Shown here piece after piece: positions 10,551 to 63,209 of a stretch of 64,000 nucleotides of DNA. The notes under the pieces were generated by a model that made no database searches, had not been told where the DNA came from, and worked only from the letters and a program-made list of their open reading frames with translations. Position numbers and translations under genes: made by a program. The stretch comes from Elusimicrobiota bacterium (lineage in GTDB: Bacteria; Elusimicrobiota; Elusimicrobia; FEN-1173). Location: contig JADKCG010000001.1 in NCBI GenBank assembly GCA_016714745.1, forward strand, positions 129,236-193,235. Reading direction: 5' to 3'. The first letter of the stretch is position 1. Every line of letters starts with the position of its first letter.

Positions 10551-11487
10551 TCAGGGGTGTTCCGCCAACCAACGTTCGGCTTGGATGGCGGCCATGCACC
10601 CCTGGCCGGCGGCAGTAATTGCTTGGCGGTACGTGTGGTCCACGCAGTCTCCCGCGGCAAAAACACCTTCGATGTTGGTGCGGGTGTTTCCGTCGGTTTT
10701 TAAATAGCCCACGTCGTCCAGGTTCAAAATCCCCTTAAAAAGTCCGGTGTTTGGTTCATGTCCAATGGCGAGGAAAAGTCCCGCCGCGGACAGAGGTTCG
10801 ATGGCCCCGGTTTTGACGTTTTTTAATTTCAACTGTTCGAGGGTTTTGTCTCCGCTCGAGTCCTCGAGCGTGTAGGGCGTTTTGATCGTGATTTTGGGGT
10901 TCGCCTTCACGCGTTCAAGCATGACGCGGGAGGACCGGAACTCGTCCCGCCGATGAATCAGAATGACCTGGGAGCCGAACCGGGTCAAATACAAAGCCTC
11001 TTCCATGGCCGTGTCGCCGCCGCCAATGACGGCGATGGGTTTGTTGCGGAAAGAGGGAGCGCGCCGTCGCAGGTGGCGCAGGCGGAAATACCTCGGTTCC
11101 AAAATTTGGCTTCGCCTCGTTGTGGAGTCGTTTGGCCGTGGCACCGGTGGCGATGATCACGGCTTTGGCGAAATACTCCGCTTCGTCCGTCACAATCTTA
11201 AAAGGGCGTTTGGAAAAATCGACGGAGTCGACGTCCTTGTCTAATACTTCCGCGCCAAACCGTTCTGCCTGTTTGCGCATGCGGTTCATGAGTTCGGGCC
11301 CCATGATGCCGTCAGGAAAGCCCGGAAAATTTTCCACCTCGCTCGTGGTCATCAACTGTCCGCCGGACTGGCCTCCCTTCATAAATCCGCCCAAAACAAG
11401 CGGTTTTAAATCCGCCCGAGACGCATATAAGGCCGCCGTATAGCCGGCAGGCCCGGAACCGATAATGATAACGTTGTGTGCATTCAT
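10551..11487 (-). CDS. trxB: thioredoxin-disulfide reductase (frameshift near 11100)
   Basis: [25 protein letters not shown] (FAD GxGxxG motif) from the ATG at 11487, with GAGGGG 8 nt upstream. The C-terminal half is in ORF 10551..11144 ([17 protein letters not shown]…[10 protein letters not shown]). Confidence 0.75.
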
Positions 11488-12030
11488 GGAATTCCCCTCA
11501 GTAGTTTTCTTGAAACGGAAAGAGTAACGCAACACGTCTCGGATAAGCAGAATACTTACGGGCGTGCCGTCAGGCCTCAACACGGGGACATGCCGGTGGC
11601 CGCCCATGGCCATTTTATTGAGGGCGTAGGCGATGGGGTCTTCGGGGTGCACATAGCTGGGGTCGCGGGTCATGATCTCTGCCACTTTGACCTTGGACAG
11701 ATCGGTGTGGACGCCCGCCACCCGCAGAAGCAAATCCCGGTTCGAGAGGATCCCCACCATTTTTTGGTTCTGATACACCAAGACACAGCCTTTTTTTCCT
11801 TCTGGAAAATTTTGACAATTTTTCTCGATGGAATCGTCGGGGCTGCACACCAGCAAATCGAGGCCTGTCAGCAGTTCCGACACCGGTTCGTTCAAAAGGG
11901 CGTCCTGAAATGCGTCGCCCTTCCGCCGAGAAGCGGGAATGTCACGTTTCATCAACGAATGCAAACACTGGGCGCAATGGTCGGCGCCCAAGGGGTATTC
12001 AAAACCGCAAAAAGGGCATGAGTTTTTCAT
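11488..12030 (-). CDS. zinc-ribbon + CBS-pair domain protein (no stop before trxB in the present frame)
   Basis: CPFCGFEY…CAQC zinc ribbon followed by two CBS motifs. A one-base deletion in the AAGAAAACT run would restore a TGA overlapping the trxB ATG (ccATGA). Confidence 0.5.
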
Positions 12031-15563: not shown

Positions 15564-17100
15564 CTATTTTTTCGACCCCTGGGTGCGCGTCGAAAGGAAA
15601 GAAGGTCTCCGTTCGTGGGGGTTGCGCCAGGAGGTCGTTATCGATTCCAAGAAAGTTCTTGGGGGTTGATGGGCTAGAAAAAGACGCCACACATCTTCTC
15701 GGAGGAGGGCGTAGTCGGGGGTCAACATCTGAACCGGGGGGAGATTTTTTGACGCGATCGGTCCCAGAATATTTTCGTACGAATCGTGGGAAACGCCCCA
15801 GGAGATCCGCCACGTTTGATCGGGAGGATACATCCGATCATCCGGCAAGAACGCGAGCGTGTCTTTTCCCGTGGCCCAGGTGTAGTAATAGTTTAGTCCC
15901 AGGTGGCAAATGACCAGTGAGAAGTCGTTCTTCGGCATCCGATCAATGACGTGTTGGTAAGTTCTGGTGTTGGTTTCGTCGAAGCGTGGGTCATAGACCT
16001 TTTTGGTGAAAAACCCCAAAAGGGTCGAAAACCCCAATCCCCATAGGAGATATCTCCATCGGGAAGGAATTCCCCAGGACCAGAGGACGGCTCCCGGCAA
16101 AAGACCGTGAGGATGAGTCGATAACTCAAATCAAGAACGTTGTTGTTGAGGAAGGGGCTGAAGAGGGCCGGAATCAAAAGCAACCAAGCGAGGGTTCGAT
16201 AGCGAGAATGGGGGAGGGTTTTGAGAAGCCATAGCCCGGGAATGAGGGCGAGGAGAGACAAAACGATTTCGGTCTGCAGGGCCGGAGGCAGAAAGACGCG
16301 CTTGCCGAGTAAGGTCAAGGGCCATCCCTGGGGCCACGTCAGCGCGGGGAAAACACGCATAAGGTCCGTTGGAAGAAATACTTTGCCTATGGCCAGGAAA
16401 GAAACGAACAGGAGGAGGCCGAAAAGGGATGTTCGCCAATGAAAAGAAATACGTTCAGCCGAATGGTCAATCACTGTTCCAACCGCGACCCACGCGCCGA
16501 TCAAGAAAAGGAGTTTGTGAGCAAAGGCAAGCGCGACAAAAAGAATTCCGCTGAGAGCCCGAGCTTTTTTGTTGGGGTTGTCCTTTAAAAAGCTCGACTC
16601 CAGGGCGGCGAGGGCCGCGAACAGGAACGCGGTGGCTCCCGCGGTTTTTGGGAAATGGGCGGAGAGGGAGGAGAGGCAAGGCGATACGGCCAGAAGGGAA
16701 CCCAAGAGAATCCCCGTCTTGATTCGACCGGTAGAATTTATCCCGTACAAAAGGCCCATCGGGGCCGCTAACCCCGCCAGGAGCGACACGCCGATTTTGA
16801 CAGCCAGGACGGGGTCTCCCAGGATGCGCTGGATCGCCGCGAAGAGGAGGACAACGATTGAATTTTCAAAACTTCGGAAACGTCCGTGTTCCGCCAGGAA
16901 TTGGGCTTGCTCGGCAAAATAGTATCCGTCCACGCCTGTGGCCACGTTGGTTTGGGTGAGCAGGCTCCAACGTAATCCAAAGGAGATTAAAAAAAGGAGA
17001 ATCCCCCAGAACCACACCTGGCGTGGGGTGTGAAGCGCGGGAGTCGCCTGAAAATTATGTTTGACGGAGCATTTCCGTCCGGGAGGGCCCGAAAATTCTG
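15564..17100 (-). CDS. polytopic membrane protein, putative ArnT/PMT-like glycosyltransferase fold (frameshift near 16100)
   Basis: Many predicted TM helices across ORFs 15893..17173 and 15564..16100, with a C-terminal soluble domain. The start is uncertain. Confidence 0.35.
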
Positions 17101-17147
17101 TTCCAGACGCTCCGGACAGTCGCCCTGCGCCAACCGGGGAATCCCGG

Positions 17148-18128
17148 TTAGAGTGTGATGGGGTAGAGAACACGGGATCGGTTTTTCCAGAGAAGTGTCT
17201 CCGATAAAACAGCGCCGTCCTTCTTCACACGATGGATGCTGTTGCTTCGGTAGACGATTCCGGCGGGATCTTTTGTGAAGCGATGGTCTCGCTCTTCAAT
17301 GGAAAAAATGCCCGCCCAAATGTCTTCGGAAGAAAGACCAACCGCCAGTTCATTTTCCATAACCCGAACGGAGAGCCGCGCTGTTTGGCCCGATCGATTT
17401 TGGAGCCGCAGGTCATGGTGATTGTGGAAAACAGAGGCTCCCGTTCCGAAGGGGACGCGGCGGTTTTCGTCCGGGAACAAATCGAAGTCATGATGGTGGC
17501 GCTCGATCACGTCAAACCCGGCGTGAAGCATGACCCATAAAAGAGAAGAGGCCAATTGGCACAGTCCGCCGCCAATCCCTTGTCCCAACCCTTGGCCGCT
17601 CACTTCATAGCCCGGACAAAACCCGCGTTTTGCCGATGGACGACCCAGCAAACGATAAAAAGAAAAGAGTTGTCCAGGGCGAATCAATACCCCATCGAAC
17701 AGGGGGGCCGCCAGCGCAATGTTGGTTCGTTTGCCCTCTTGCAGTCGTCGGTTGGCCCCCTTCCATGATTTTACAATGGCGCTTTTGTTTTCAAAAACCC
17801 AATGGGTGAAACGAGTGGCGTCTCCCGGATCACGATCCAAAGCAAACGGAGGTCGACAAAAGGCATCCGAGGCCCAACGCCCCGCGCGTCGAACCGAAAT
17901 CCGGAAACCGAGGGGGATCCATGGGGAAACGATTTTTACCAGTCCGATTCGAATGTCTCTCTTTGAAATCCCAGGGAACTGGAATACCATGTTTCGTAAT
18001 AAAAAGACACAAAAGCAGGATCCTCCCCCTCCTCGAGGGGGCGGGGCGGGGGTTTTCCAAAATATTTCTTGTGGGCTTCTAAAATCGGATCCTCGGCGAG
18101 TCCTTGTTTTGTCAGTATGTCTTTGCAT
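17148..18128 (-). CDS. VanW-like family protein
   Basis: GQLFSFYRLLG and GYEVSGQGLGQGIGGGLCQLASSLLWVMLHAGFDVIERHHH are typical of the VanW domain. Confidence 0.6.
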   Translation of the reverse strand: MQRHTDKTRTRRGSDFRSPQEIFWKTPAPPPRGGGGSCFCVFLLRNMVFQFPGISKRDIRIGLVKIVSPWIPLGFRISVRRAGRWASDAFCRPPFALDRDPGDATRFTHWVFENKSAIVKSWKGANRRLQEGKRTNIALAAPLFDGVLIRPGQLFSFYRLLGRPSAKRGFCPGYEVSGQGLGQGIGGGLCQLASSLLWVMLHAGFDVIERHHHDFDLFPDENRRVPFGTGASVFHNHHDLRLQNRSGQTARLSVRVMENELAVGLSSEDIWAGIFSIEERDHRFTKDPAGIVYRSNSIHRVKKDGAVLSETLLWKNRSRVLYPITL

Positions 18129-19381
18129 TCGGAATACATGAGATGGCTGGGGCGAGTGATGGTCATTTTTATTTTTTCAGCGGTTCGGCTTTTTAGGACG
18201 AGGACGTTGCCGTAATTGTCAAAGTCGGCGCGGTCCAAATATCCTTCCAGGTCGAGAACCGTCTTTTTTGAGGAGGAGCTCACCACGCGTGCGACTCCCT
18301 TAAAAAGGGAATCCCCGTTTGGGACAGAGAAAGAAAAACGCGCGGTTTTAAAGTCATATTGAAAAAAAGATCCCCAAAGGGGGTCGCTGTATTGATCTTT
18401 GAGGGTCCGACGATTGTTTTCAACGGTTTGTCTCGTCCCCTCCGTTTTGGGGCGGAGGACGGTGTCTCGGATTTAAAACCCATTTCAGTTAAACACAAAT
18501 CTTGTATCTTTGTCCCTGGGTAATGGGAGAGAATCTTTAATTCGAACGTTGAATCTTGAACAGCCTTTTTTAAAGGGATGATCTGCAGACCCGATTCATT
18601 TTTGAGTGTATAGGTTTCTCCCGCGAATGAGACCTCTCTTAATTTCCCGTTCTTATCAAACGTTTCATCGTCGCGCTGGTGTCCATTTGAAAACCAGAGA
18701 CCCGTGAGTTGAGGGGGGGTATCGAATGTGAATGTGATGGTGGTCCCCTCGCCATACCCGGGCGCGCCTTCTGCCCAAACGGTGTCTAATTCGCCGTCAA
18801 ACAGATTGTCGACGCTGTAGACCATGGGGGGTGAGTGTGGAGGAGGCCAAAACCTTGACGGCCTTTTCGCGGGGAGCAATGAGCTGGATTCTCTCTCCCT
18901 GGTGATAAAAGTCAATTTCCGAAGGCACCGCGTCCTGTGTCCTCTCCTCCGAATTCACAAAGCATTGGATCGAGAAAAAGGAACCACGGAGGGGGGGATT
19001 CACAGGAATGGATTGAACGCCACGATCATCTGCCCGAACATCAAAACCGGGGACTCCGTTGTATCGATCCAATGTCCAGTCGGGGCTTCGATGCCCGAGA
19101 AGATAACAGATTTGAGCGCCGGGAGCTGTGCGGATATCGATTCGGTCGATGGTGACCTCCTCTCCGAATGAGATTTGAGCCTCCTCAAAAAGCTGGACAA
19201 TTTCCTCGGATTCGGATGAGGGGATCGTGGCGTACGTCTGTCGGGGGGCCGTGCCTGTATCGCCATCAAAATAAGCCCCACCGCCTCGAAGATTGATGAG
19301 TGAGACATTCTTTGCGTTGAGGAGCACCGGAAAAAGAAAGAGGGCCAGGATTATTGAAACGAAAGGGCGAATCAACGTCAT
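17936..19381 (-). CDS. secreted protein with an F5/8-type C (discoidin-like) domain; frameshifted over three ORFs
   Basis: Signal peptide MTLIRPFVSIILALFLFPVLLNA. NLFDGELDTVWAEGAPGYGEGTTITF resembles a discoidin/NPCBM-type carbohydrate-binding domain. Confidence 0.4.
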
Positions 19382-38032: not shown

Positions 38033-38587
38033 TTGCCAGAGGGATGTTTTTCCTGGGGAGGAATTACGCCGGTGAAAGAAAAAGTGGTGTCGGGCGGGGA
38101 AACCCAAGAATTTCATTGGAGCATGGAAGGCATTCGCCGCCAGGCAGAACCGGCGGTTCGGTTGAAACCCGCTCCGGCCAGATCGTCCGTTGACGAAGAG
38201 GCGCCCACGGGGGTAGAAAGTCGGCGGTTCCCTCGCATCGATCTCACCTTGCCCATTTTGTACAAGATCCTTCCGGAAGAACCGATGGTCGCTTCTCAGT
38301 CCGCTGCGCCGGACCTGCACAGCAAGGTTGATAATATCAGTCCCACAGGGGCTTGCCTGGTCCTTGCCGAAAAACTTCCCCGAGGAACCAATTTAGCGCT
38401 TTCTTTTCACGTGGCACAAAAGGCCGCCATTTCTGCGGTCGGCCGTGTTGTCTGGGCCAAACCGACCGAAATAGCCCATCATTACCTTACCGGTCTGGAA
38501 TTTGTCGTCGTCTATCGAAAAACCCGAACCAAAACCGAATACCTTTCCACCGACATCCTAAAAGACCTGCTCGGTCCCACAGCCTAA
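38033..38587 (+). CDS. PilZ-domain (c-di-GMP-binding) protein
   Basis: RxxxR-like segment RRFPRIDL and a D/NxSxxG motif (DNISPTGA). The likely start is the GTG at about 38071, after GGGGAGGAA. Confidence 0.55.
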   Translation: MPEGCFSWGGITPVKEKVVSGGETQEFHWSMEGIRRQAEPAVRLKPAPARSSVDEEAPTGVESRRFPRIDLTLPILYKILPEEPMVASQSAAPDLHSKVDNISPTGACLVLAEKLPRGTNLALSFHVAQKAAISAVGRVVWAKPTEIAHHYLTGLEFVVVYRKTRTKTEYLSTDILKDLLGPTA

Positions 38588-38871
38588 CCCGTCCCTCTTT
38601 TGACGCCTGGTGCACCCGACTGGAAATGTATTTCGTCGTTGCTCCATTGAGAGGGCCCCCTTTTTCCAGGACAAGATCATACAACGGACAACCGCCCGAT
38701 AAATCGTTCAACCCGGACTTTGCAATAGGCGCGAGCACCGAGATGAAGAAGCCGGCGGCTTTTTCGACGAAAAACGCGAACGCGTGGCGGTGTCTACGGT
38801 TGAGCGTTTTGAGGAAAAAGCAGTCCCGAATTCTTCGTCGAATGCCGTGTCCTATTGCAAAATCCGGGTTT

Positions 38872-38908
38872 AATGTAAACCAATCGACATTGATTCTTGG
38901 TTGACATT
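38872..38908 (+). promoter_or_regulatory. BirA-box-like bio operator (TGTAAACC-N17-GGTTGACA) overlapping a TTGACA -35 element, 50 nt upstream of bioB
   Basis: aaTGTAAACCaatcgacattgattcttGGTTGACAtt. The half-sites match the E. coli bioO arms TTGTAAACC / GGTTTACAA. Confidence 0.45.
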
Positions 38909-52140: not shown

Positions 52141-52854
52141 ATGAAAAAAAACGACAAAACAAATCCTTTATTTTTTTGGACGTCCACCGGCAAGAAAGTG
52201 CTGATGGGCGGGTCCGGGTTGGCCTTGGTCGGTTTTGTCGTCGGCCATCTCGTCGGTAACTTGCAAATGTTTTTGGGGCCGGAAGCGGTGAACCGCTACG
52301 CGGCCTTTCTAAAAAGCACGGGGGAACTCCTCTGGGTGGTGCGGGGGGGATTGGTGGCCATGGTCGCGATCCATATCGCCACGGCCGTTTCTCTCAGCCG
52401 TGAGAACGCGGCCGCTCGGCCCGTGGGGTATGCCGTTAAAAGTTATAAAGAGGCGACGTACGCTTCCCGCACCATGGTCTACTCCGGCCTCGTCATTTTT
52501 GCCTTCGTGGTTTACCACCTTTGTCACTTTACCTTGCTCGTCACCCATCCCGAATACCGTCATTTGGTGGACGCCCAGGGCCGCCATGACGTTTACTCCA
52601 TGGTGGTTTTGGGCTTTATGCGTCCGGGGATCAGCGTCTGGTATACGGTGAGCGTGTTATTGCTGGGGATGCACCTCTCCCATGGGTTGTACAGCATGTT
52701 CCAGTCCCTTGGACTTCAGTCGGAAACGCTTCGCCGACGGGTTCGACCGGCGGCCGTCGCGGTGGGGGGGCTCCTCTTTTTAGGTTTTGCTTCCATCCCG
52801 GCGGGAGTGCTGTTGGGGTTGATCCGGTTACCGGCGGGAGGGGGACTTCCATGA
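52141..52854 (+). CDS. sdhC: succinate dehydrogenase/fumarate reductase cytochrome b subunit (type B, single 5-TM anchor)
   Basis: [13 protein letters not shown]… with five predicted TM helices and conserved His residues. ATGA overlap with sdhA. Confidence 0.75.
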
Positions 52855-54763
52855 TTTTGGATTCCAAAATTCCAGCCGGGCCGATCGCGGAGAAGTGGGA
52901 CAAACATAAATTTGACATGAAACTCGTCAATCCGGCCAACAAGCGGCGCTACAGCGTCATTGTGGTGGGATCCGGTTTGGCCGGCGCTTCAGCGGCCGCT
53001 TCTTTGGCCGAGCTGGGCTACAACGTAAAATGTTTCTGTTATCAGGACAGTCCCCGCCGGGCCCACTCCATCGCCGCCCAGGGGGGCATCAACGCCGCCA
53101 AAAACTATCAGAACGACGGCGATAGCGTTTATCGGCTTTTCTACGACACCGTCAAGGGCGGCGATTTTCGGGCCCGCGAGGCCAATGTGTACCGGCTCGC
53201 CCAGGTCAGCGCCAACGTGATCGACCAGTGCGTCGCTCAGGGCGTTCCTTTCGCGCGGGAGTATGGGGGCTTCTTTCCAACCGCTCTTTCGGCGGCGCCT
53301 TGGTTTCCCGCACCTTCTACGCCAGAGGACAGACCGGTCAACAATTGCTCCTGGGCGCCTACCAGGCCCTGTCCCGCCAGATTGGGCTGGGAACGGTGCA
53401 AATGTTTTCCCGAACCGAAATGCTTGACCTGGTGGTGATCAACGGGCAGGCCCGCGGCATCGTCGTGCGGAACCTCGTCACGGGGGCCATCGAATCCCAC
53501 GCCGCCGACGCTGTCGTGCTGGGGACCGGCGGGTACTCGAACGTTTTCTTTCTGTCCACCAACGCCAAAAACTGCAACACCACCGCGATCTGGCGCGCCC
53601 ACAAAAAGGGCGCCTACTTGGCCAACCCTTGCTACACCCAAATTCATCCCACCTGCATTCCCCAGTCGGGCGACCATCAGTCCAAACTGACGCTGATGTC
53701 GGAATCCTTGCGGAACGACGGGCGCGTCTGGGTGCCCAAGGCCGCCGACGATAAAAGGGCTCCCGGGGATATACCTGAAAGCGAGCGGGACTATTATCTC
53801 GAGCGGCTCTACCCCACCTATGGCAACTTGGCTCCGCGTGACATTTCCTCCCGCGCCGCCAAGCGCGTGTGCGACGAAGGGCGTGGCGTAGGCCCGGGCG
53901 GCCGAGGGGTCTACCTGGATTTTGCTGATTCGCTGAAACGCCTGGGAGAGGGCGTGGTTCGGGAACGTTACGGCAACTTGTTCGATATGTACGAGCGCAT
54001 CACCGGTGAAAATCCCTACCAAGCGCCCATGCGCATTTATCCGGCGGTCCATTACACCATGGGGGGCCTCTGGGTGGATTACAACCTCATGAGCAATCTG
54101 CCGGGCCTGCACGTCATCGGCGAGGCCAATTTCTCCGACCACGGCGCCAATCGTTTGGGCGCCAGCGCATTGATGCAGGGGTTGGCGGACGGCTACTTCG
54201 TCCTCCCATACACCATCGGCCATTATTTCGCCTCCGTCAAACGGGACCCGGTCACGACGGACCATCCCGAGTTCAAGAAAGCCGAAGAATCGATCCGGAC
54301 CCAGACGAACCGCTTGCTCGCTGTCCAAGGCAAACGAACCGTGCTCTCCTTTCATCGCGAACTCGGCAAAATCATGTGGGACGAGTGCGGAATGGCGCGC
54401 ACGGAGGCCAGCCTGAAAAACGCGCTTCAACGGATTCCCGCCCTGCGTGAAGAGTTTTGGAAAAATGTTCGGGTCACCGGTCAGAGCGAGGATTTCAATC
54501 AGGCCTTGGAGCAAGCCGGGCGGGTGGCCGATTACTTGGAATTTTCCGAACTGCTGTGCGCCGACGCGTTGCACCGGAAGGAATCGTGCGGCGGGCATTT
54601 CCGAGAGGAGTATCAGACCGAAGAAGGGGAAGCCCAACGCGATGATGCGAATTTCGCCTACGTGGCCGCCTGGGAACACAAAGGGGTGGGCCGGCCCGCC
54701 GAACTCCACAAAGAGCCCCTCGTCTTTGAAAACGTCCATCTTCAGCAGAGGAGCTACAAATGA
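52851..54763 (+). CDS. sdhA: succinate dehydrogenase/fumarate reductase flavoprotein subunit (frameshift near 53270)
   Basis: FAD-binding N-terminus ([14 protein letters not shown]…[10 protein letters not shown]) in ORF 52851..53438. The remainder (…[10 protein letters not shown]…) is in ORF 53228..54763. A G-run indel at about 53270 separates them. Confidence 0.85.
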
Positions 54764-55500: not shown

Positions 55501-55616
55501 TTAGAGGGCACGTTGTCAACCCATTAACCAAACCGGGATTCCCTGGTTGGCCAGAAAAACCCAGAGCAACATATTTCGGGCGAGCCGGAAACAAATAGTA
55601 CAGAGAAGAATTCACT

Positions 55617-55721
55617 GGCAAATCCCCCCTGCCCCCCTTTCAAAAGGGGGGAAAAAACCCGGGTTCAATGGGGCCCCCTTTGGTCCCCCCTTTGAAAAAA
55701 AGGGGTGCGGGGGGATTTGCC
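55617..55721. repeat. roughly 105-bp imperfect palindrome built from G/C and A/T homopolymer blocks; outer arms GGCAAATCCCCCC / GGGGGGATTTGCC
   Basis: ggcaaatcccccctgcccccctttcaaaagggggggaaaaaacccgggttcaatggggccccctttggtcccccctttgaaaaaaaggggtgcggggggatttgcc. The arms are reverse-complementary, with several mismatches between the inner blocks. Confidence 0.7.
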
Positions 55722-55825: not shown

Positions 55826-55850
55826 TTGCATTATTGATAATCATTTGCAA
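55826..55850 (+). promoter_or_regulatory. Fur-family box-like palindrome (TTGCATTATTGATAATCATTTGCAA) immediately upstream of the fur-family gene
   Basis: The central ATTATTGATAATCATTTGC matches the classical Fur consensus GATAATGATAATCATTATC at 14/19 positions. It ends 10 nt before the ATG at 55861. Confidence 0.45.
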
Positions 55851-55860
55851 CAATAACCCC

Positions 55861-56283
55861 ATGGGGAACATTGCGAACGATCTGAGGTCGGCCCTGGCGC
55901 AGGACGGCAAGCGATGGACGGGAGTGAGGGAAACGGTGCTCTCGGTGTTAGAAAAAAGCGCGTTGCCGATTTCGGCCAAAGACATTTTTAAACAGGTGCG
56001 CTCGAGCGGGGTGAATTTGGCTTCGATCTATCGAACGACCGAAATGCTGGCTGATCGGGGAATCGCCATGCAGGTGGAATCCCGAGACGGCGTCCGCCGA
56101 TATGAATTGTCTGACCGCTATCGGCCGCACCATCACCACGTGGTCTGCCGGGACTGCGGGGAAACGCGGGACGTGTCCGGTTGCGGGGTCAAAGGGTTGG
56201 AAGAGAGAGCCGCGCGTTCGACTGGATTTAAAATTTTGGCGCACCAGTTGAGCTTGACCGGGCTCTGCCCCCGGTGTTCTTGA
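55861..56283 (+). CDS. Fur-family metalloregulator (Zur/Fur)
   Basis: DNA-binding helix region plus an HHHH…C…CG……CPRC metal-binding tail. Confidence 0.8.
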   Translation: MGNIANDLRSALAQDGKRWTGVRETVLSVLEKSALPISAKDIFKQVRSSGVNLASIYRTTEMLADRGIAMQVESRDGVRRYELSDRYRPHHHHVVCRDCGETRDVSGCGVKGLEERAARSTGFKILAHQLSLTGLCPRCS

Positions 56284-57384
56284 AGCATTTTTTTAAACTC
56301 GTAATGCAAACAATTATCAATAAAATTCGGAGATCCACAATGGTTTCGATGTTTCTGCGCTTTTTCAAGAACCGTTTCATTGACAAGAGTCTTTTTTTCG
56401 TTGCGAGGAGAGAGGGGACCTTTTTCTTCTGTTTGATCTTTGGTGTTGGCGTGGGGTTGGGCACGTCCATGAAAATGAATCCTCCCCAAATAGGCGTCGT
56501 GGCCGCTCATAGCATCTTGGGGGATTGGGTTCGCGAAGTGGCGGGGCCGGGGGTCTCGGTGCGGGTGTTTGTCGGGCCGAGCGCTGACGCCCACACCTAC
56601 CAACCGAGCCCGGACGACGTGCGTCTTTTGGCGGACGCCCAGGTTTTGGTGTTCAGCGGGGTCCACTTTGAACCCTGGCTTCCGGACTTGATTCGATCTT
56701 CGCGGACAAAGGCCAGAATGATCGATCTCTCCAACGCGGTTTCTCTGAGACGATTGGCGGGGCCTCATGGCGAAATCGACCCGCATTATTGGAACGACGT
56801 GCGCAATGCCCAATCCGCGATCCCGGGAAGACGCGGTGGTGGCCCTGCTTTCCAACGGCATGTTCGCCTTGGGGTTGGTTTGGATGGCCCGGTTGCGATC
56901 GTTTCGAGACCTGTCCCACATGTTGTTTGGCAACATCCTGGGGGTCTCGTCATTGGACCTTTGGGTCATGGCAGGGGTGGTAACGGTTTTGGCCGCGGCC
57001 CTCCTCCTTTTCAATAAAGAATGGGAACTGGTCTCCTTTGACCCCGTTCAGGCAAAGATGATTGGACTGCCGGTGGAACGAATGCGGTTACTGCTTCTGC
57101 TTCTCCTGGTTCTGGTGGTGGTCGCCGGAATTCAGGTGGTCGGAACGGTGTTGACCGGGGCCCTCCTGATCGCGCCGGCGTCGGCTTCGTTGTTGGTGTG
57201 CCGCCGTCTTTCACGGGTCATGATCCTGTCCTGCGCGGTCGGCGCTCTCGCAGGGATTTTGGGGCTATTGGCGTCCTATCTTTGGTCCCTGCCGTCCGGG
57301 GCGACCATTGTTTTGTTCGGCACGGCGTTTTACGTCATGGCCTGGGGGATTCATATTTTCATGAAAAGAAGGAGACTCTTGTGA
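56274..57384 (+). pseudogene. remnant of a metal ABC transporter: N-terminal lobe of a TroA/ZnuA-like binding protein fused to the C-terminal two-thirds of a ZnuB-like permease; ATPase gene absent
   Basis: The frame of ORF 56274 has hydrophobic leader-like stretches around TFFFCLIFGVGVGLGTS and QIGVVAAHSILG, then a TroA-like N-lobe ending GEIDPHYWNDVRNA, followed by nonsense. ORF 56767..57384 matches ZnuB TM helices 4-8 only. The 1.1-kb span is too short for intact A, C and B genes. Confidence 0.5.
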
Positions 57385-58385
57385 AAAAAAAGAGCACGAA
57401 CAAAACGGAAAATAAATTCGGGGCTGTCTCCCCGGTTTATGTCCTCTGCGGGTTTTTGGGAAGCGGAAAGACAACGCTTTTGATCCGACTTCTCTCGCAT
57501 TTTTTGGACCGCGGGGTGCGTCCATCGGTTTTAATGAACGAGTTTGGGGAAATCGACATTGACGGAAAATTGGTGGAGCAGGCCGGCCCGCGCGCACGCA
57601 ATCTGGTTTTGGAAAAAGTGTTGGGCGGGTGTTTGTGTTGCGACGCCAAAGAGGGGTTGGAAGAGTCATTGGTGAAACTGCTCCAGCGGGCTCCCGGTCA
57701 ACCGGTGGTCGTGGAAACCACCGGTCTCGCGGTCTCCGGAGCGGTCTCGGCAACCGTTGAAAAAACATTGGCGGGCCTTCCCGTCGACGGTCCCCGCGGA
57801 CGGCTGGCCCGGGTGATCGGCCTTGTGGACGCCCCGCGGTTCATCTCCTTGGCCGCCTTTTGGCCCGCGGCGCCATACCATCTGTTGGGGGCCAACGTGG
57901 TTGTCGTCAATAAAATGGATCTCTTGGCGAAGGAGGAGGAAGAAACGTTGTTCGGCGTTCTTGAAAAATCGGCTCCTTCGGCGCGGCTTCTCCCGGCCGT
58001 TCACGCGGAAGTCAATATGAATGAACTCTTGACGGGAAAAACCCGAGAGCTCCCGCCCCCGGACGACTTTCGAGGGGATTCCACCTCCGGGTATCGGAGC
58101 GCCGGGTTCAACGTGTCGGCCCCCGTGGACCTCGCCCGCCTGCAGGCGCTTTTGGAAAGACACCGGCGATCGGTTATTCGCGCCAAGGGGTTTCTTCGTG
58201 TTCCGGGGTTTCCGGAAATGCAGGAAATCCAATGGGCCGGCGGGCTCCTGAATTTTCAGAACGCTTCGGGGCGCCAAAAATCCCAAATCGTCGTGATCGG
58301 CCGCCGAGTGCCCTGGACGGGCTTTATGGAAGGACTGGACGCCTGCGCCCTCTCGCCCCAGCCCTCTGGAAGAAAGAAGACTTGA
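57381..58385 (+). CDS. CobW/COG0523-family GTPase (putative zinc metallochaperone)
   Basis: P-loop CGFLGSGKTT and the CxCC motif (GGCLCCDAK). The GTG start follows AAGGAG and overlaps the upstream TGA. Confidence 0.8.
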   Translation: MKKKSTNKTENKFGAVSPVYVLCGFLGSGKTTLLIRLLSHFLDRGVRPSVLMNEFGEIDIDGKLVEQAGPRARNLVLEKVLGGCLCCDAKEGLEESLVKLLQRAPGQPVVVETTGLAVSGAVSATVEKTLAGLPVDGPRGRLARVIGLVDAPRFISLAAFWPAAPYHLLGANVVVVNKMDLLAKEEEETLFGVLEKSAPSARLLPAVHAEVNMNELLTGKTRELPPPDDFRGDSTSGYRSAGFNVSAPVDLARLQALLERHRRSVIRAKGFLRVPGFPEMQEIQWAGGLLNFQNASGRQKSQIVVIGRRVPWTGFMEGLDACALSPQPSGRKKT

Positions 58386-58421
58386 AATGAAGGCCCGGTT
58401 TTGTTTTATAATGAAAACGGC

Positions 58422-58673
58422 ATGAAACGCATAGCGGCGATATTGGCGGCCCTCTTGATTGGGCTCGGCCCCGTGGCCCACGTGGTTTCTCACGCGGGGG
58501 ACGGGGACCACGACTGTCAGGCCTGTCAGTCGATTCGCTCCCCTTTAACGGGGGCGGCTGTTGCGCTGGCGGTTCGCGCTCACGTTTTTGCCGAGCTTGT
58601 TTTTTCGGGGGAAGTTCCCACCGATTTTGCCCTCGTTTCCGATCCTTCGCGTCCCCGCGCTCCTCCGCTTTAA
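58422..58673 (+). CDS. small exported protein with an HAGDGDHDCQAC metal-ligand-like cluster
   Basis: Signal peptide MKRIAAILAALLIGLGPVAHVVSHA, then a His/Asp/Cys-rich segment. No recognisable family. Confidence 0.35.
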   Translation: MKRIAAILAALLIGLGPVAHVVSHAGDGDHDCQACQSIRSPLTGAAVALAVRAHVFAELVFSGEVPTDFALVSDPSRPRAPPL

Positions 58674-58782
58674 CTTTCCTGGGAAGGCGTCCCGCCTTCC
58701 TTTGGCTGTCCTTGGGGGCGGCCATCCGTATTTCCCAAAAATAGAACTAACGAAGTCCTCCTTTTTTTAAAGGGAGGAAACA

Positions 58783-59284
58783 TGGGGTTTGAAAAAAAAG
58801 TTGAGGGATCAAGGACATTCCTTTTGAGGTTCGCCCGGGGGAGGTGTTCGGCTTTTTAGGAGGCTTCGACTCCGTAGGCAAAGCGACGGAGCCGAACGGG
58901 CGAGGAGTGACAGGGACCATCCCTGAGGCGGTGCGCGGCCTCAACGGCCGCCGGGTGGAAGTGGTGGGCTATGTGATGCCCATTGACATTGACGACAAGG
59001 GGATCCGTTCCTTTTCGCTGATCAAAGACCAGGCGTCTTGCTGTTTCGGTCAGACGCCGCGCATCAATCACTGGGTCTATGTGACCTTAGCGGGGCGGTC
59101 CCTTCGCGAGATTGATTTTGAGCCGAAACGGGTCGTCGGCACCTTGACGGTGGGTGAACATTACGACCAAGGCTATCTGGTGTGTTTGTATCGGATGACG
59201 GGGGAAAATCGTAGAAAAGAACCCCCCTCAGTGATGGAATTTATTTGTTTTCAGTCAAAAACAAAAAGAGGAGATAAAAAATGA
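58783..59284 (+). CDS. DUF3299-domain protein (N-terminus probably frameshifted at an A8 run)
   Basis: VVGYVMPI…SFSLIKDQASCCFGQTPRINHWVYV fits the DUF3299 pattern. The ATG at 58783 is in another frame. Confidence 0.55.
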
Positions 59285-60546
59285 AACAGCAGCAAAGTGT
59301 TGCATGGATGGCGGCCCTATCTGTGCTTCTTGCCCCGGCCGTTGCGGGTGCCCAGAGCAATCCGCTGGGAAGCGCCAAGATGAACCCTGACGTTTCCGCT
59401 ATTGTCGATATGTTCTACACAAACGATGATACGAAAGAAGGGATGGGACACGTCAAAGAAGAGATCGCGGGATTTACCGAAACGCCCGGGGATCGTCGAA
59501 GAAGGTGAGCATGCCCACGGCACCGAGGAGGGGTTCAATCTTCGGCATCTGGAGCTTCAATTCTCCGCCGCTGTGGATCCCTATTTCAAGGGGTCGGCCA
59601 TCGCCGCCGTCGACATGGAAGGCGCCGAGTTGGAAACCGCCGAGGTTGAAACCACTTCTCTCCCCTGGGGGCTGACGGTGAAAGGCGGAAAATTCTACAG
59701 CAACTTCGGCTACATCAACTCCAAACACGCCCATCAGTGGGATTTTACGGACCAGACCCTGGTTTATGAACTTCTGCTCGGCGAACACGGGTTGAACGAC
59801 AAGGGGCTTCAAGTGTCTTGGCTGGCGCCGACGCCGTTCTATATGCTTTTGGGAGCGGAATCTTTCCAGGGGAACAACGAAAAAATGTTTGCCTATCACG
59901 GCGACGGTTCCCTTCCTCGCCACGAGGGGCCCCGGGTCGGGACCGGCTGGCTCAAAGTGTCCCCCAACCTCCCTGGGGCCCATGCTCTGCAGGTCGGCCT
60001 TTTCGCCTCAAAGGCGTCCATCAGGAGGAACTGAGCCTTGACGATTCGGATCCCGGGGCTGACCAATTCCGGGACGGGTACAACGCCTTCCACGGGGCCG
60101 ACCTCATCTACAAATTAAACAGCCCCAAATCCTATGGCCAGAGCGATTTCTTCCTGCAAGGCGAATACATGAAGCGCAAAAAAAACATGGAAATCGTGGA
60201 AGACACTGGTCTGATTCCCGCTGTCGTGGGCACCCACCGCGTGGACGTTCAAGACGGCTACTACGCCCAGGCGGGGTACGGATTTTTGCCCCGGTGGCGG
60301 GCCGCCGCGCGTTGGGAAGAGCTGGGTCTGACGAACAAAACGGACTTGCCCGACGGAACGTCTCTCGTCAACGGGTCGAGCCGCAAATTTTCCGGCATGG
60401 TGGACTTTACGCCCACGGAATTCTCCCGCCTGCGTCTGCAGTTCAATAATGGTTCCTACGCCACGGAGGACGGCCGCATGCACGGTTCGGAGATTTTCTT
60501 GCAGTGGATGGTCTCCATTGGCGCCCACGGTGCGCACTCGTTCTAA
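59281..60546 (+). CDS. outer-membrane beta-barrel (porin-like) protein, two frameshifts
   Basis: Signal peptide MKQQQSVAWMAALSVLLAPAVAGAQS. Alternating amphipathic strands across ORFs 59281/59402/59818. Ends …GAHGAHSF* with the terminal Phe typical of OM barrels. Confidence 0.5.
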
Positions 60547-60633
60547 AAGGGTCCCCCGCCCGCTGTCCCAATAGTTTGAGCCCCTCTCCCGGGCGGGAGT
60601 TGTGAGTCAAAAGAGCGACTTAAGGAGAATGCA

Positions 60634-61543
60634 ATGAAGAAGCTTTTGGCATTGTTCAGCATCCTGTGGTTCGGCGGGCGGGCCTTCTGCCGCGCCTTTG
60701 AAAGTAGTGACCACCACGCCGGACCTGGCGGATCTGGCCCGTCAAGTGGGCGGAGACCGTGTGAAGGTGGATGGCTTGTCCCGAGGGTCCCAGGACCCCC
60801 ATTTCGTCGAAGCGAAACCTTCCTTGATCGTGAAAGTTCGCGACGCGGACCTGTTTGTCCAGACCGGTTTGGACCTCGAGATCGGCTGGGCTCCGCTATT
60901 GATCCAGGGGGCCCGCAATGCTCGCGTGCAACGGGGCGCCAAAGGATTTTTGGATGCGTCGGCTTTCATTCAACCCCTGGAGGTCCCAACCGTCGTGAGC
61001 CGGGCGGCGGGGGACGTTCACCCGGGGGGCAACCCCCACTTCCTCGCCGATCCGCACAATGCGTTGGCGGTGGTGAAAGCCTTGGAGGGAAAACTGGCCG
61101 AGCTGGACCCCGCCGGAGCGGTGGTCTACAAAAAAAATGCCGAGGATTATTCCGCCCGGCTGTCCGCCAAAATCGCTGGCTGGGAAAAACGCATGGCTCC
61201 CGCCAAAGGGGCGCGTTTTGTCAGCTACCACAAAAATATGGTCTATTTTGCTGACCATTTCGGCCTTGTGTCGGATGGACAAATCGAGCCCAAACCGGGA
61301 ATCCCGCCCACGGCCAAACACACGGCGGACCTCATCGCCGTGATGAAAGAACGGCGCACGCCGCTGATCCTCACCAATCCTCATTTCGAGCGGCGCACGC
61401 CCGACTCTTTGGCTCGGGCCACGGGAGCCAGTGTGGTAACGGTGGCGCTCACCCCGGATGCCGTCCCGGAGGCGGCCGATTATATTTCCGCCGTTGAATT
61501 CAACGTCGCCGGCGTTTTTCGGGCGTTAACCCCAAAACAATAA
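60634..61543 (+). CDS. znuA: TroA/ZnuA-family metal-binding lipoprotein (frameshift near 60690)
   Basis: Signal peptide MKKLLALFSILWFGG in the frame of ORF 60634. The mature domain in ORF 60698..61543 has paired His sites (DVHPGGNPHFLADPHN). Confidence 0.7.
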
Positions 61544-61655
61544 ATGACCAGGAGAACCGTCACCAAGGCCAGGGAAATGGGGTTCACCCCCTATGGTGAC
61601 AATCGCCCTGGATCCACCGGGGAATCCTGGTTAAAATAATGTAACCTTTCCGCTT

Positions 61656-62399
61656 ATGGCGCCTCTCATTCAGTTTGACAAGGCCAGTTTGGGGTATGGC
61701 TCGGCGACGGTTCTGCGCGACGTCAGTCTTCGGATTGACGAAGGGGAATCCGTGGGCCTCGTGGGACCGAACGGGTGTGGGAAAACCACATTCCTTCGGG
61801 CGGTATTGGGATTGCTCCCCCCTTTGGCCGGGCGGGTGGACCGCCGAGCGGGGCCGAGGTTCGCCTATGTTCCCCAAGCGGACGAGATGAACCTCCTCTG
61901 GCCGTTAACCGTGAAAGACGTGGTGGAACTTCCCGCCCGGGCGAAACGCTGGGGGGGGCGGGTCGCTGACTCGGACGCCTGCCGGGCGCGGGAAGCCATG
62001 GCGCGCGCTGGCGTGGAGCCGATCGCCGATCAACTTTTGCGCGAGGTCTCGGGCGGACAAAGGCAGAGGGCCGCCCTCGCCCAGGCCCTGGCCCAGGCGC
62101 CGGACGTCTATTTGTTGGACGAGCCCACCAAAGGGTTGGACGTGGTGGCCGAACGGGACCTGTTGGCTCTTGTCGCGGGTTTGTCGGAGGGGGGGAAGAC
62201 GGTTTTTCTGGTCAGCCATTCCCTCCATATTCCCCTCAACCTTTCCAAACGGATCCTCCTCTTTCATCAGGGGGCGGTGATCTCCTCCACGCCGGAGGAT
62301 ATTATTCGATCGAAACGGTTGGAAGAGGTGTACGGGGTGCCTTTCGTCCACATGGAACAAAACGGGCACCGGTGGGTTGTGCCCGAGGGGGTCCGATGA
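61656..62399 (+). CDS. znuC: metal ABC transporter ATP-binding protein
   Basis: Walker A GPNGCGKTT, signature LSGGQRQR, Walker B LLDEP. Confidence 0.8.
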   Translation: MAPLIQFDKASLGYGSATVLRDVSLRIDEGESVGLVGPNGCGKTTFLRAVLGLLPPLAGRVDRRAGPRFAYVPQADEMNLLWPLTVKDVVELPARAKRWGGRVADSDACRAREAMARAGVEPIADQLLREVSGGQRQRAALAQALAQAPDVYLLDEPTKGLDVVAERDLLALVAGLSEGGKTVFLVSHSLHIPLNLSKRILLFHQGAVISSTPEDIIRSKRLEEVYGVPFVHMEQNGHRWVVPEGVR

Positions 62400-63209
62400 G
62401 TTTCCTGGAGTTGCCGTTCATGCGGACCGCTTTCGCCGCGGGTCTTTTCGCGGGCACGGCCCTGTCCGTCATCGGAATCTTCTCGGCGACGAGGAGCGTG
62501 GCTTTTTCCGGATTGGCGGCTTCTCAACTGGCGGCCCTGGGCGGCGTGGTGGGGGTCGTCTTGGGTCTTCATGTTGGCGCGAGCGTTTTCTCCTGGTCTT
62601 TCGTTGTGGCGGGGTTGATGGCCCTGGCCTTTCTGTCGCGCTCCCGAAAAACGTCGGCCGACAGTTGGGTGGCGACCCTCTATGTCCTGGGCGCGGCCCT
62701 GGCGGTCTTGGTGTTGTCCAAATCCCCGCGCGGCGAGAGCGAGGCCCTCGGGGTGTTTTTTTGGAAACATTTTGTCCTTGGGAACCCTGGAAGTGTGGGA
62801 AGCCGGGGCGCTGTTCGTTTTAACCTTGGCGGGCTTGGCGTTGTGGTTCCGTCGGTGGGTATGGCTGGCCTTCGACCCGGTGGGCGCGGAGGTGGCGGGA
62901 CTGCGGGCGGGGCTTTGGAACGGGATCTTCCAGTTTTTCTTTGCGGCGGCCCTCACGCTCTCCATTCACATCTTTGGCGTCTTGTTGTCTTTCGCCTATC
63001 TCATTCTGCCGGCCACCGCCGGCCTCTTGGTCGTTCGGCGACTCCGAAGCCTGGTCATCTTCTGCGTTGTTTCTTCCGCGGTGGTCACGGCAGTGGGATT
63101 TGAACTTTCCTTCCGCTGGGATTTTCCCACAGGCCCCTTCGTCTCCGCTCTCTTGGCCCTCCTGGCCATCGGCGCCCGCCTTTACTCTTGGCGCAGAGGT
63201 GAGGGGTAA
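62396..63209 (+). CDS. znuB: metal ABC transporter permease (frameshift at a T9 run near 62752-62762)
   Basis: MSFLELPFMRTAFAAG… in ORF 62372. The C-terminal helices are in ORF 62682..63209. ATGA overlap with znuC. Confidence 0.75.

Follow-up and report, generated by a model that had tools for sequence, protein, structure and literature searches.

The DNA analysed here, called the window throughout, is a stretch of 64,000 nucleotides from an Elusimicrobiota bacterium (NCBI GenBank assembly GCA_016714745.1, contig JADKCG010000001.1, positions 129,236 to 193,235 of the forward strand). Between 55826 and 63209 it carries a zinc-starvation gene set of this genome, an island that is genuine yet partly decayed, in which two layers of control, Zur-type repression and a metal-sensing arrest-peptide leader, on balance probably gate a dedicated route made of an outer-membrane porin and the ZnuABC importer. 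Reading of the open reading frames (ORFs) of the 54-64 kb region together with Pfam and NCBIfam scans recovered all the genes that a preliminary description of this DNA had listed, while an Rfam scan of 55.4-63.4 kb returned no credible RNA families. The features that carry the argument are the following.

55826-55850, unstranded: operator box 1 (core 55831-55849), about 10 nt 5' of the regulator ATG, predicted autoregulatory site
55861-56283, + strand: Fur-family metalloregulator, putative Zur (140 aa; Pfam FUR 85 bits)
56303-56325, unstranded: operator box 2 (core 56305-56323, inverted relative to box 1), 20 nt past the regulator stop, predicted to control the downstream operon
57381-58385, + strand: COG0523 (CobW-type) GTPase (334 aa; Pfam cobW 106 bits, CobW_C 52 bits)
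58401-58673, + strand: DUF2946-like leader ORF (start TTG 58401 or ATG 58422; 83-90 aa)
59281-60546, + strand: porin-fold outer-membrane protein (about 421 aa; signal peptide, His-rich loop, C-terminal GAHGAHSF; two frame corrections)
60634-61543, + strand: znuA (Pfam ZnuA 176 bits; three-His zinc-type site; one frame correction)
61656-62399, + strand: znuC, ABC ATPase (Pfam ABC_tran 98 bits; best NCBIfam model AztA, 167 bits)
62396-63209, + strand: znuB, ABC-3 permease (Pfam ABC-3 107 bits; one frame correction)

The association of the porin with its neighbours was evaluated across genomes. A word-indexed search returned 703 porin homologues at E<=1e-5, and a profile search gave 3326, 2019 and 475 representative clusters at E<=1e-3, 1e-10 and 1e-30, respectively. 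We fetched 80 loci encoding porin relatives, added L001-L003 and scanned the resulting 83 loci by tblastn with the island proteins (L and P numbers designate related loci and proteins). These loci represent at least eight phyla (Elusimicrobiota, Verrucomicrobiota, Lentisphaerota, Kiritimatiellota, Planctomycetota, Acidobacteriota, Thermodesulfobacteriota, Campylobacterota, Pseudomonadota). ZnuA lies directly 3' of the porin on the same strand in 73 of the 75 loci with enough DNA, with a median gap of 81 nt, and is usually followed by ZnuC and ZnuB; of the 77 loci with 600 nt or more of upstream DNA, 55 have the leader ORF ahead of the porin. Clustering of the flanking ORFs revealed no widely conserved porin neighbour beyond ZnuA, ZnuB, ZnuC and the leader ORF. 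Fur-family genes occur beside the module only in the Elusimicrobiota loci and in L023 and L054, COG0523 only in L003 and L026, and DUF3299 in none of the 83 loci.

Our comparison with published work was limited to the open-access literature, where we found nothing specific on a porin linked to znuABC or on a zinc-related RAPP leader. A porin family near-obligately linked to ZnuACB and distantly OprP-like is undescribed in the literature searched, and so is a DUF2946-type RAPP leader placed before a porin-ZnuACB operon. Published DUF2946 surveys list TonB-dependent receptors, PepSY, YcnI, PCuAC, CopC and a thiol-oxidoreductase as downstream partners, all in a copper context (PMC9426467; PMC12992588). 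Many loci of the Planctomycetes-Verrucomicrobia-Chlamydiae (PVC) group (L006, L014, L024, L025, L070, L077, L013, L015, L026) were seen to hold a second, divergent ZnuA/ZnuC/ZnuB set by the porin operon, followed by COG0523 in L026; these pairs echo the two-importer layout of Elusimicrobiota described below.

After correction of two frame breaks, the porin of the window is 93% identical to the intact protein P0001 with 100% coverage, and its closest relatives belong to Elusimicrobiota metagenome-assembled genomes (82% and 76% identity). The window protein matched no Pfam or NCBIfam model, Pfam PF07396 included. The family is unusually well conserved across phyla, with a mean column identity of 69%, many invariant His residues, among them H89, H149, H151, H169 and H234, the His-rich loop and a GAHGAHxF end. 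An AlphaFold2 model (mean predicted local distance difference test score, pLDDT, 72.7; predicted TM-score, pTM, 0.73) showed a signal helix followed by 16 long strands, and Foldseek searches of the PDB returned 16-strand porins, the lowest E values being those of Vibrio OmpT and Pseudomonas OprP/OprO (about 1e-13) and the top TM-score that of OprP (0.58). Of ten distant relatives, one passed the Porin_O_P model (22.9 against a cutoff of 20.9) and others gave sub-threshold TonB-barrel matches only; the name "TonB-dependent receptor" carried by one relative reflects a weak match of this kind and was set aside. Judging from the structural model, the barrel is a TonB-independent porin, and the earlier call of a porin-like outer-membrane barrel with a His-rich end agrees with the 16-strand model, the Foldseek matches, the GAHGAHSF terminus and the linkage to ZnuABC. 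Some homologues (those in L009, L023, L033, L064, L065 and L069, and P0249) are 70-100 residues longer and carry, past the signal peptide, an N-terminal coiled-coil-like segment; presumably this resembles the coiled coil of the trimeric DcaP channel. DcaP itself is among the Foldseek matches of the porin.

The small Cys/His ORF preceding the porin was then considered. A jackhmmer search with the 83-aa product of the window found homologues just upstream of the porin in 56 other loci. In the window the ORF encodes, in this order, an export signal, the cluster H..H.GDGDHDCQAC, a 43-residue spacer, RAPP at residues 79-82 of 83, and Leu before the stop codon. The N-terminus, MKRIAAILAALLIGLGPVAH, is a putative export signal, and a hydrophobic N-terminus is found in the aligned relatives. 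Mean column identity within the family is only 23%, and what is kept is the hydrophobic N-terminus, a following Pro/His, the CxxC, whose cysteines (C32 and C35 in the window) are invariant or nearly so, and the terminal PP. The distance from CxxC to (R/C)(A/G)PP is 43-45 residues in 52 of 57 leaders, and in 53 of them 1-4 residues follow the PP; the terminal motif is RAPP in 29, CGPP in 14 and RGPP in 8. Residues before the first Cys are enriched in His and Asp (consensus HDxDHCx[IL]CQLA), with His at position -5 in 32 of 56 leaders and at -1 in 24 of 56. Pfam DUF2946 (PF11162) was matched by 23 of 32 relatives, the best E value being 3.5e-7. Measured from the leader stop, the first aligned porin residue lies at a median of 162 nt and the refined start codon of the porin at a median of 88 nt.

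This arrangement is close to that of CruR (Bp2923) of Bordetella pertussis, which consists of an export signal, a CxxC, 45 residues and a RAPP three residues from the end, followed by a 162-bp spacer (PMC9426467). CruR stalls the ribosome and thereby allows transcription of the downstream gene for an outer-membrane transporter, until copper relieves the stall and Rho terminates (PMC9426467). In Rhodobacter capsulatus, the stall of CutF opens a stem-loop that masks the ribosome-binding site (10.1101/2022.11.11.516240; 10.1101/2025.02.05.636593). Among arrest motifs, RAPP and RGPP act most strongly and depend least on their context, the Pro-Pro pair occupying the P and A sites (PMC12992588). By analogy with these systems, the most likely role of the small Cys/His protein is that of a leader peptide that senses metal, stalls the ribosome and acts in cis. 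This interpretation is favoured over that of a metal-capturing protein because the spacer is free in sequence and fixed in length, as would suit a ruler made of the ribosomal tunnel plus the translocon. As to the metal, we infer zinc, favoured by a motif compatible with His2Cys2 coordination, by downstream genes of zinc type and by the lack of conserved copper genes nearby; the assignment goes no further than this, because all studied DUF2946 members sense copper. The wider proposal, that a divergent DUF2946 branch senses zinc through a nascent His2Cys2-type motif and so gates an undescribed TonB-independent zinc porin in at least eight phyla, is put forward as a tentative possibility.

The upper layer of control concerns the regulator and its operators. 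The protein is a Fur-family member with the tail HHHH..CxxC..CxxC and a C-terminal His, as the preliminary description had stated; CRDC...CPRC was read in its sequence, and the structural Cys4 zinc-site signature of the fold is present. NCBIfam models scored 86 bits for Bacillus Fur, 53 for PerR and 36 for E. coli Zur, all far under cutoff, and PDB sequences 65 bits for Fur, 59 for PerR, 56 for Nur, 53 for S. coelicolor Zur, 52 for M. tuberculosis Zur and 30 for E. coli Zur. Neither search told Fur, PerR, Nur and Zur apart, and because the regulator scores about equally against structures of the four classes, its designation as Zur, likely and unproven, is taken from the gene context alone. 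This context comprises COG0523 (one gene here, two in relatives), a Zrg-like module in relatives and a three-His ZnuA lacking the Mn-type Asp. COG0523 proteins, Zrg-type modules and zinc ABC importers are typical contents of Zur regulons (PMC6103462; PMC2770081).

The 19-nt operator core TTATTGATAATnnTTTGCA has exactly two copies in the window, at 55831-55849 (+) and 56305-56323 (-), where 0.07 matches are expected by chance; two matches occurred in 0 of 100 shuffles. Box 2 is complementary to box 1 at 17 of 19 positions. The boxes flank the orthologous regulator on both sides in L001, L003, L004 and L088, and the upstream box only is found in L005. The Fur-box-like palindrome reported earlier before the regulator gene is thus a real box, with a core conserved in five related loci and a consensus of about 23 bp (TTAaTGAnAATnATTTGCAAyAA), which becomes a perfect 7-1-7 palindrome, AAATGATAATCATTT, in L001. 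A palindrome-like operator, predicted from sequence, stands before the zinc-uptake genes. A search for the motif at the promoters upstream of 57381, 58422, 58783, 60634 and 61656, where further copies had been anticipated, found no operator within three mismatches. Since the boxes occur only on the two sides of the regulator gene, the simplest reading of the layout is an autoregulated regulator gene and a single long operon beginning at box 2. This operon would run (znuA2'-'znuB2 remnant)-COG0523-leader ORF-(ABC'-'DUF3299 remnant)-porin-znuA-znuC-znuB; the COG0523 start overlaps the stop of the permease remnant in a GTGA, and the small ORF begins 15-36 nt past the COG0523 end. The preliminary view that every gene from 55.8 to 63.2 kb fits a Zur regulon therefore holds in part: a Fur-family repressor with conserved flanking operators, COG0523 and a three-His ZnuA speak for it, while DUF3299 is a truncated remnant, the operator does not stand at the internal promoters, and the class of the regulator is not discriminated by sequence. 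An inverted pair at 58399-58418 / 59247-59266, considered as a second operator, was rejected, as comparison with L003 showed only a T-rich stretch and a TATAAT/TACAAT -10-like element.

Two repeats were noticed around these genes. A long imperfect inverted repeat rich in C/G homopolymers lies at 55617-55721, between sdhB and the regulator gene, with 24-nt arms that are 83% complementary; it may be a terminator or a repeat element, and the Rfam mir-4484 match within it is weak and attributable to chance. A motif of 18-21 nt (ACCGGGGAATCCTGGTT or its complement) is found three times in the window (17129-17150, 55531-55551 and 61616-61633), two of the copies lying in spacers at the island edges.

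The importer announced in the preliminary description as complete does have all three genes, with Pfam matches to ZnuA, ABC_tran and ABC-3 and one frame correction each in znuA and znuB. PDB alignments with Synechocystis and E. coli ZnuA and with MntC assigned His, His and His as the ZnuA ligands, the third being His and not Glu, and the fourth-position Asp being absent; the His columns are kept in 70-71 of 72 porin-linked ZnuAs. Where E. coli ZnuA has DHDHAEKSDEDHHHGD, the window protein has a short loop (AAGDVHPGG), and the long His/acid-rich loop is absent. A long His-rich loop is not universal in zinc-specific binding proteins. The COG0523 protein shows a Walker A GSGKTT and the GCLCC motif; its best NCBIfam match is ZigA, at 92 bits against a cutoff of 600, so that equivalog level is not reached, and orthologues hold the same position in L003, L084 and L088. 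As a side observation, the znuA-znuC spacer measures 112 nt against 16 nt in L001 and L084, the extra DNA of about 100 nt (61530-61629) containing a GTCACCA...TGGTGAC inverted repeat.

The leader is followed by a structured spacer, and a further hairpin was read after the porin gene.

58674-58781, + strand: structured spacer after the leader ORF (hairpins 58681-58701, 58703-58724 and 58756-58778)
60555-60597, + strand: GC-rich hairpin after the porin gene (stem 60555-60562 / 60590-60597), read from sequence, with counterparts in L001 and L003

The spacer folds with a minimum free energy of -52.9 kcal/mol (z = -2.48), and L088 shows the same three hairpins, with sequence changes that are in part compensatory. 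Leader-porin spacers contain more C than G in 47 of 57 cases, as expected for a Rho-loading region. In a PVC subgroup, a hand-specified helix whose 5' arm covers the leader stop codon was 82% paired, compared with 35-45% in slid controls, and showed modest covariation. A k-mer search upstream of the leader ORFs across phyla revealed only a -35-like CTTGACA and no common Zur box. The hairpin behind the porin could serve as a partial terminator or as a stabiliser, and perhaps set the ratio of porin to ZnuABC expression. In the Kiritimatiellales/Pontiella loci L042, L044, L050, L055, L060, L062 and L043, a conserved non-coding stretch (…GAGTCGGGAAAGCTACACAC…GGAAAGCAACCGGG…) was seen 100-200 nt before the leader ORF, which may be a small RNA or another regulatory element.

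On these grounds we propose a two-layer scheme. In the first layer, as the gene context suggests, the Fur-family protein would act as a Zur-type repressor binding both box copies and controlling its own gene and the long operon. In the second, by the architecture shared with CruR and CutF, the leader would be exported co-translationally and the ribosome would stall at the C-terminal RAPP. The stalled ribosome would keep the structured, C-rich spacer open or shield it from Rho, so that porin and ZnuABC are expressed; in the PVC subgroup it would block formation of the stop-codon helix. Metal bound by the nascent H-x3-H-D-C-x2-C, 43 residues before the RAPP, would relieve the stall and lower downstream expression. 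We infer this direction of the switch by analogy with CruR, whose logic, in which metal relieves the stall and expression falls, would be the natural one for an uptake operon; it may work through Rho or through unmasking of a ribosome-binding site. The His-rich 16-strand porin would let Zn2+ cross the outer membrane independently of TonB, the three-His ZnuA would pass it on to ZnuBC, and COG0523 would redistribute zinc in the cytoplasm.

Parts of the island have been lost. The deletions were read from blastn of the window against the contigs of relatives, with inspection of the junctions, and left the following remnants.

56340-56826, + strand: znuA2' remnant, 5' part of a second ZnuA-type gene (Pfam ZnuA positions 1-111 of 263)
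56818-57384, + strand: 'znuB2 remnant, 3' part of a second ABC-3 permease gene (Pfam ABC-3 positions 81-254 of 258)
58792-59284, + strand: chimeric remnant, a 69-nt ABC-ATPase fragment (58792-58860) plus a 5'-truncated, zrgE-like DUF3299 (58856-59284)

The interval 56340-57384 between regulator and COG0523 is a fused remnant and not a spacer. Window positions 56494-56826 align to L088 8480-8812, inside an intact 297-aa ZnuA, and the permease part shares 95% identity with the C-terminal portion of P0129, an intact protein of 271 aa. The DNA lost corresponds to L088 8813-10249; it held the 3' half of znuA2, the complete znuC2 and a 5' portion of znuB2, and the junction shows a short CCGG microhomology. 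COG0523 does follow the regulator, as had been reported, without being adjacent to it. The second loss, of about 5.7 kb (L084 2428-8126), joined a 69-nt fragment of the first ABC-ATPase gene (…DIPFEVRPGEVFGFLG) to about codon 43 of DUF3299. The resulting ORF still matches Pfam PF11736 (30.2 bits against a cutoff of 22, profile positions 43-134 of 139) and lacks a signal peptide, the first 42 residues or so and an in-frame ATG, while the full-length relatives P0122-P0125 carry signal peptides. An NCBI protein, P0121 ("Elusimicrobia bacterium"), is 99% identical to the fragment and is annotated at just 125 aa. What had been taken for a periplasmic DUF3299 protein is a stump and no working protein, and so could have no place in a functioning capture route in the periplasm.

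The full-length island is held by the relatives L088/L089 and L084/L085. There the order is Fur, COG0523 (447 aa), a WD40 protein, ZnuA2, ZnuC2, ZnuB2, COG0523 (334 aa), the small ORF, an ABC-2 transporter, a TPR protein, a 369-aa protein, an ABC ATPase with an FtsX/MacB permease, a 261-aa protein, a 161-aa His-rich lipoprotein, DUF3299 (167 aa, with signal peptide), the barrel, ZnuA, ZnuC and ZnuB. In L084 and L085 the ABC ATPase, FtsX/MacB permease, His-rich lipoprotein and DUF3299 are consecutive, and the partner genes of DUF3299 are those deleted in the window. DUF3299 is the ZrgE of the Zur-induced ZrgABCDE system of Vibrio (PMC9817125). The deletions thus removed an Azt/Znu-type second importer and a Zrg/MacB-type ABC system with its His-rich lipoprotein and DUF3299. 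What is left, namely the regulator with both of its operators, a single COG0523, the leader, the porin and ZnuACB, is a trimmed form of the roughly 20-gene island of the relatives. The extra genes of the relatives (L088 5502-10816; L084 2246-8504) all lie between regulator and porin, and their WD40 beta-propeller protein has no obvious signal peptide.

Smaller defects are of another kind. Three reading frames are needed to cover the barrel gene, and two for each of znuA and znuB; alignment to the intact orthologues on L001 and L003 (83-93% nucleotide identity) located the four breaks as single-base indels within or beside homopolymers.

Near 59488, + strand: indel in the porin gene, extra G
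Near 60007-60010, + strand: indel in the porin gene, missing A
Near 60672, + strand: indel in znuA, extra base
62756, + strand: indel in znuB, T-run of T7 here and T6 in L001

The corrected proteins are full-length and 87-94% identical to the intact orthologues. A sdhA/frdA flavoprotein gene (52851-54763) is split likewise, one ORF covering FAD_binding_2 positions 2-107 and the following ORF positions 114-414, and a CBS-Pyr_redox_2 oxidoreductase gene (10551-12030, - strand) is also broken by a frameshift. Because the same type of split affects these two genes elsewhere in the window, the four frameshifts of the island are most likely assembly errors, and porin, znuA and znuB are best read as intact. 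The splits point to an indel-prone assembly, probably of long-read type, across the whole window. Overlapping same-strand ORF pairs were also seen at 15564-17173, 18280-19381 and 38033-38904, not confirmed as splits.

Several observations weigh against the two-layer scheme. The regulator scores higher with Bacillus Fur (86 bits) than with E. coli Zur (36 bits), so that the Zur class is not assignable by sequence, and the operator box holds the classical Fur-box core TGATAATCATT. The leader of the window has no Pfam DUF2946 match even at E<=1; its ORF, coming after COG0523, is not the first of the operon, and the gene now next to it is a remnant. Every characterised DUF2946 peptide senses copper and none zinc (PMC9426467; 10.1101/2025.02.05.636593). 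RNAalifold found no consensus structure on 13 leader-porin spacers, and in a crude test the number of loci in which the stop-codon region pairs far downstream was 28, against 27.1 in shuffles. Finally, with two deletions and many indels, parts of the operon are possibly out of use.

Four other explanations were weighed. The preliminary description had joined the barrel, DUF3299 and the short HAGDGDHDCQAC protein into a zinc capture route from outer membrane to periplasm. In this sense the small Cys/His protein would be a stable zinc binder, exported or membrane-anchored, that together with porin and DUF3299 forms a physical path to ZnuA; its export signal and His/Cys cluster, its presence with the porin in 55 of 77 loci and the His-rich nature of the porin would fit. 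We consider this unlikely, as beyond the signal peptide only the CxxC, one His/Pro and the terminal PP are kept and the spacer is constant (43-45) in length alone, the family overlaps Pfam DUF2946, whose studied members CruR and CutF work in cis and escape detection as proteins (PMC9426467; 10.1101/2022.11.11.516240), and DUF3299 is signal-less here and absent from the other porin loci first scanned. A CruR-type leader accounts better for the small protein. Such a leader might still sense copper, closing the porin-ZnuABC route against copper entry, or the whole module might handle copper, since the studied DUF2946 members all respond to copper via CxxC or CxxxC (PMC9426467; 10.1101/2025.02.05.636593) and the CxxC of this family is invariant. 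This too appears improbable: the downstream ZnuA is of three-His type, the conserved neighbours include no copper chaperones, PCuAC, CopC, YcnI or TonB-dependent OprC-type genes, the Elusimicrobiota operon carries COG0523 and lies under a Fur-family operator, and the His/Asp before the first Cys (His at -5 in 32 of 56, at -1 in 24 of 56) would suit a His2Cys2 zinc site.

A very unlikely alternative concerns the first layer and holds the regulator to be an iron or manganese sensor (Fur, Mur) or a PerR, with an ABC system importing Mn or Fe and no zinc regulon at all. Fur and PerR do score highest in the NCBIfam and PDB searches, TGATAATCATT is identical to a portion of the classical Fur box, and Joint Genome Institute (JGI) names for relatives of the remnant permease read "manganese/iron transport". 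The score gaps between classes are small, and all scores are far under the curated cutoffs. In a PerR alignment the position of PerR His37, which we take to be a ligand of the regulatory metal site, is Pro in the regulator. The third ZnuA ligand is His rather than Glu, with no Asp at the fourth position, and the two COG0523 genes and the Zrg-like DUF3299 module of the relatives are hallmarks of Zur regulons (PMC6103462; PMC9817125; PMC2770081). The four frameshifts in porin, znuA and znuB and the two large internal deletions with their stumps might finally indicate a decaying, non-functional pseudogene cluster. To this we give only a slim chance, given that the frameshifts are homopolymer indels of the kind that also splits sdhA and another oxidoreductase gene of the window, that the corrected proteins are full-length and 87-94% identical to intact orthologues, and that the deletions spared the regulator, both operators, COG0523, leader, porin and znuACB.

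Zinc passage over the Gram-negative outer membrane is known mainly for TonB-dependent receptors, and the present porin family, which lacks a Pfam or NCBIfam model and stands before znuACB in 73 of 75 loci, offers a concrete candidate for a passive zinc route. To our knowledge, metal-sensing arrest peptides (CruR, CutF) have so far been found for copper only. Were the zinc-sensing proposal true, the arrest-peptide mechanism would extend to another metal and to many non-proteobacterial phyla, offering a simple leader-spacer-reporter system for tests. The leader would then be the first arrest peptide sensing a metal other than copper, and the porins the first family dedicated to zinc and the missing outer-membrane partner of ZnuABC. 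The annotation of this genome is corrected as well: several genes that look like pseudogenes probably owe this to sequencing errors, while DUF3299 and the second importer are true remnants.

Among known systems, CruR is the nearest to the leader. The two share the export signal, the CxxC, a fixed spacer (45 residues in CruR, 43 here), RAPP near the stop codon and a long distance between ORF and gene, and in both the next functional gene encodes an outer-membrane uptake channel, with the logic of an uptake shut off by its metal. They differ in what lies downstream, a 16-strand porin and ZnuACB here and a TonB-dependent transporter with PepSY in CruR, and the neighbours here point to zinc. Moreover, the present family has a His/Asp-rich HDxDHCxxC and many CGPP ends, belongs mostly to phyla other than Proteobacteria and includes a window member that misses the Pfam model, and the ORF of the window is internal to a Zur-type operon. 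CutF resembles the leader as an exported nascent peptide whose Cys motif stands some 45 residues away from a Pro-rich stall site at the C-terminus, and a structured spacer follows its ORF as well. However, its motif is CxxxC, and copper induces the stall, switching on a detoxifying oxidase, while an uptake operon should respond in the opposite way; in most loci here, the porin ribosome-binding site also lies outside the spacer helices.

The porin is comparable to OprP/OprO and to MnoP, the Mn2+ channel of Bradyrhizobium cited in PMC6011978, which are TonB-independent, substrate-specific 16-strand channels feeding a binding protein. Identity to OprP/OprO is only 12-14%, and the window protein is set apart by the lack of a Pfam match, by the unusual conservation of its family and by its invariant His residues and GAHGAHxF end. 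With the ZnuD-type TonB-dependent zinc receptors it would share zinc entry at the outer membrane, co-regulated with ZnuABC, and it has His-rich loops like theirs, but those receptors are 22-strand barrels with an N-terminal plug and a TonB box, whereas the porin has about 420 residues, no plug and 16 strands in the model. Zur-controlled islands of znuABC and COG0523 are ordinary in themselves. The importer has the elements of ZnuABC and AztABCD under Zur, namely a three-His cluster A-I binding protein, an ATPase, an ABC-3 permease, a Fur-family repressor and a COG0523 neighbour; its best NCBIfam models are AztA, AztB and AztC, with all scores under the equivalog cutoffs, and it differs from ZnuABC in lacking the long His-rich loop and in its order A-C-B behind a dedicated porin and leader ORF. 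As for the Zrg systems (ZrgABCDE of Vibrio or the PA4063-PA4066 type), likeness is found in DUF3299/ZrgE and in the ABC and lipoprotein module of the relatives, which in the window is deleted down to a signal-less DUF3299 stump.

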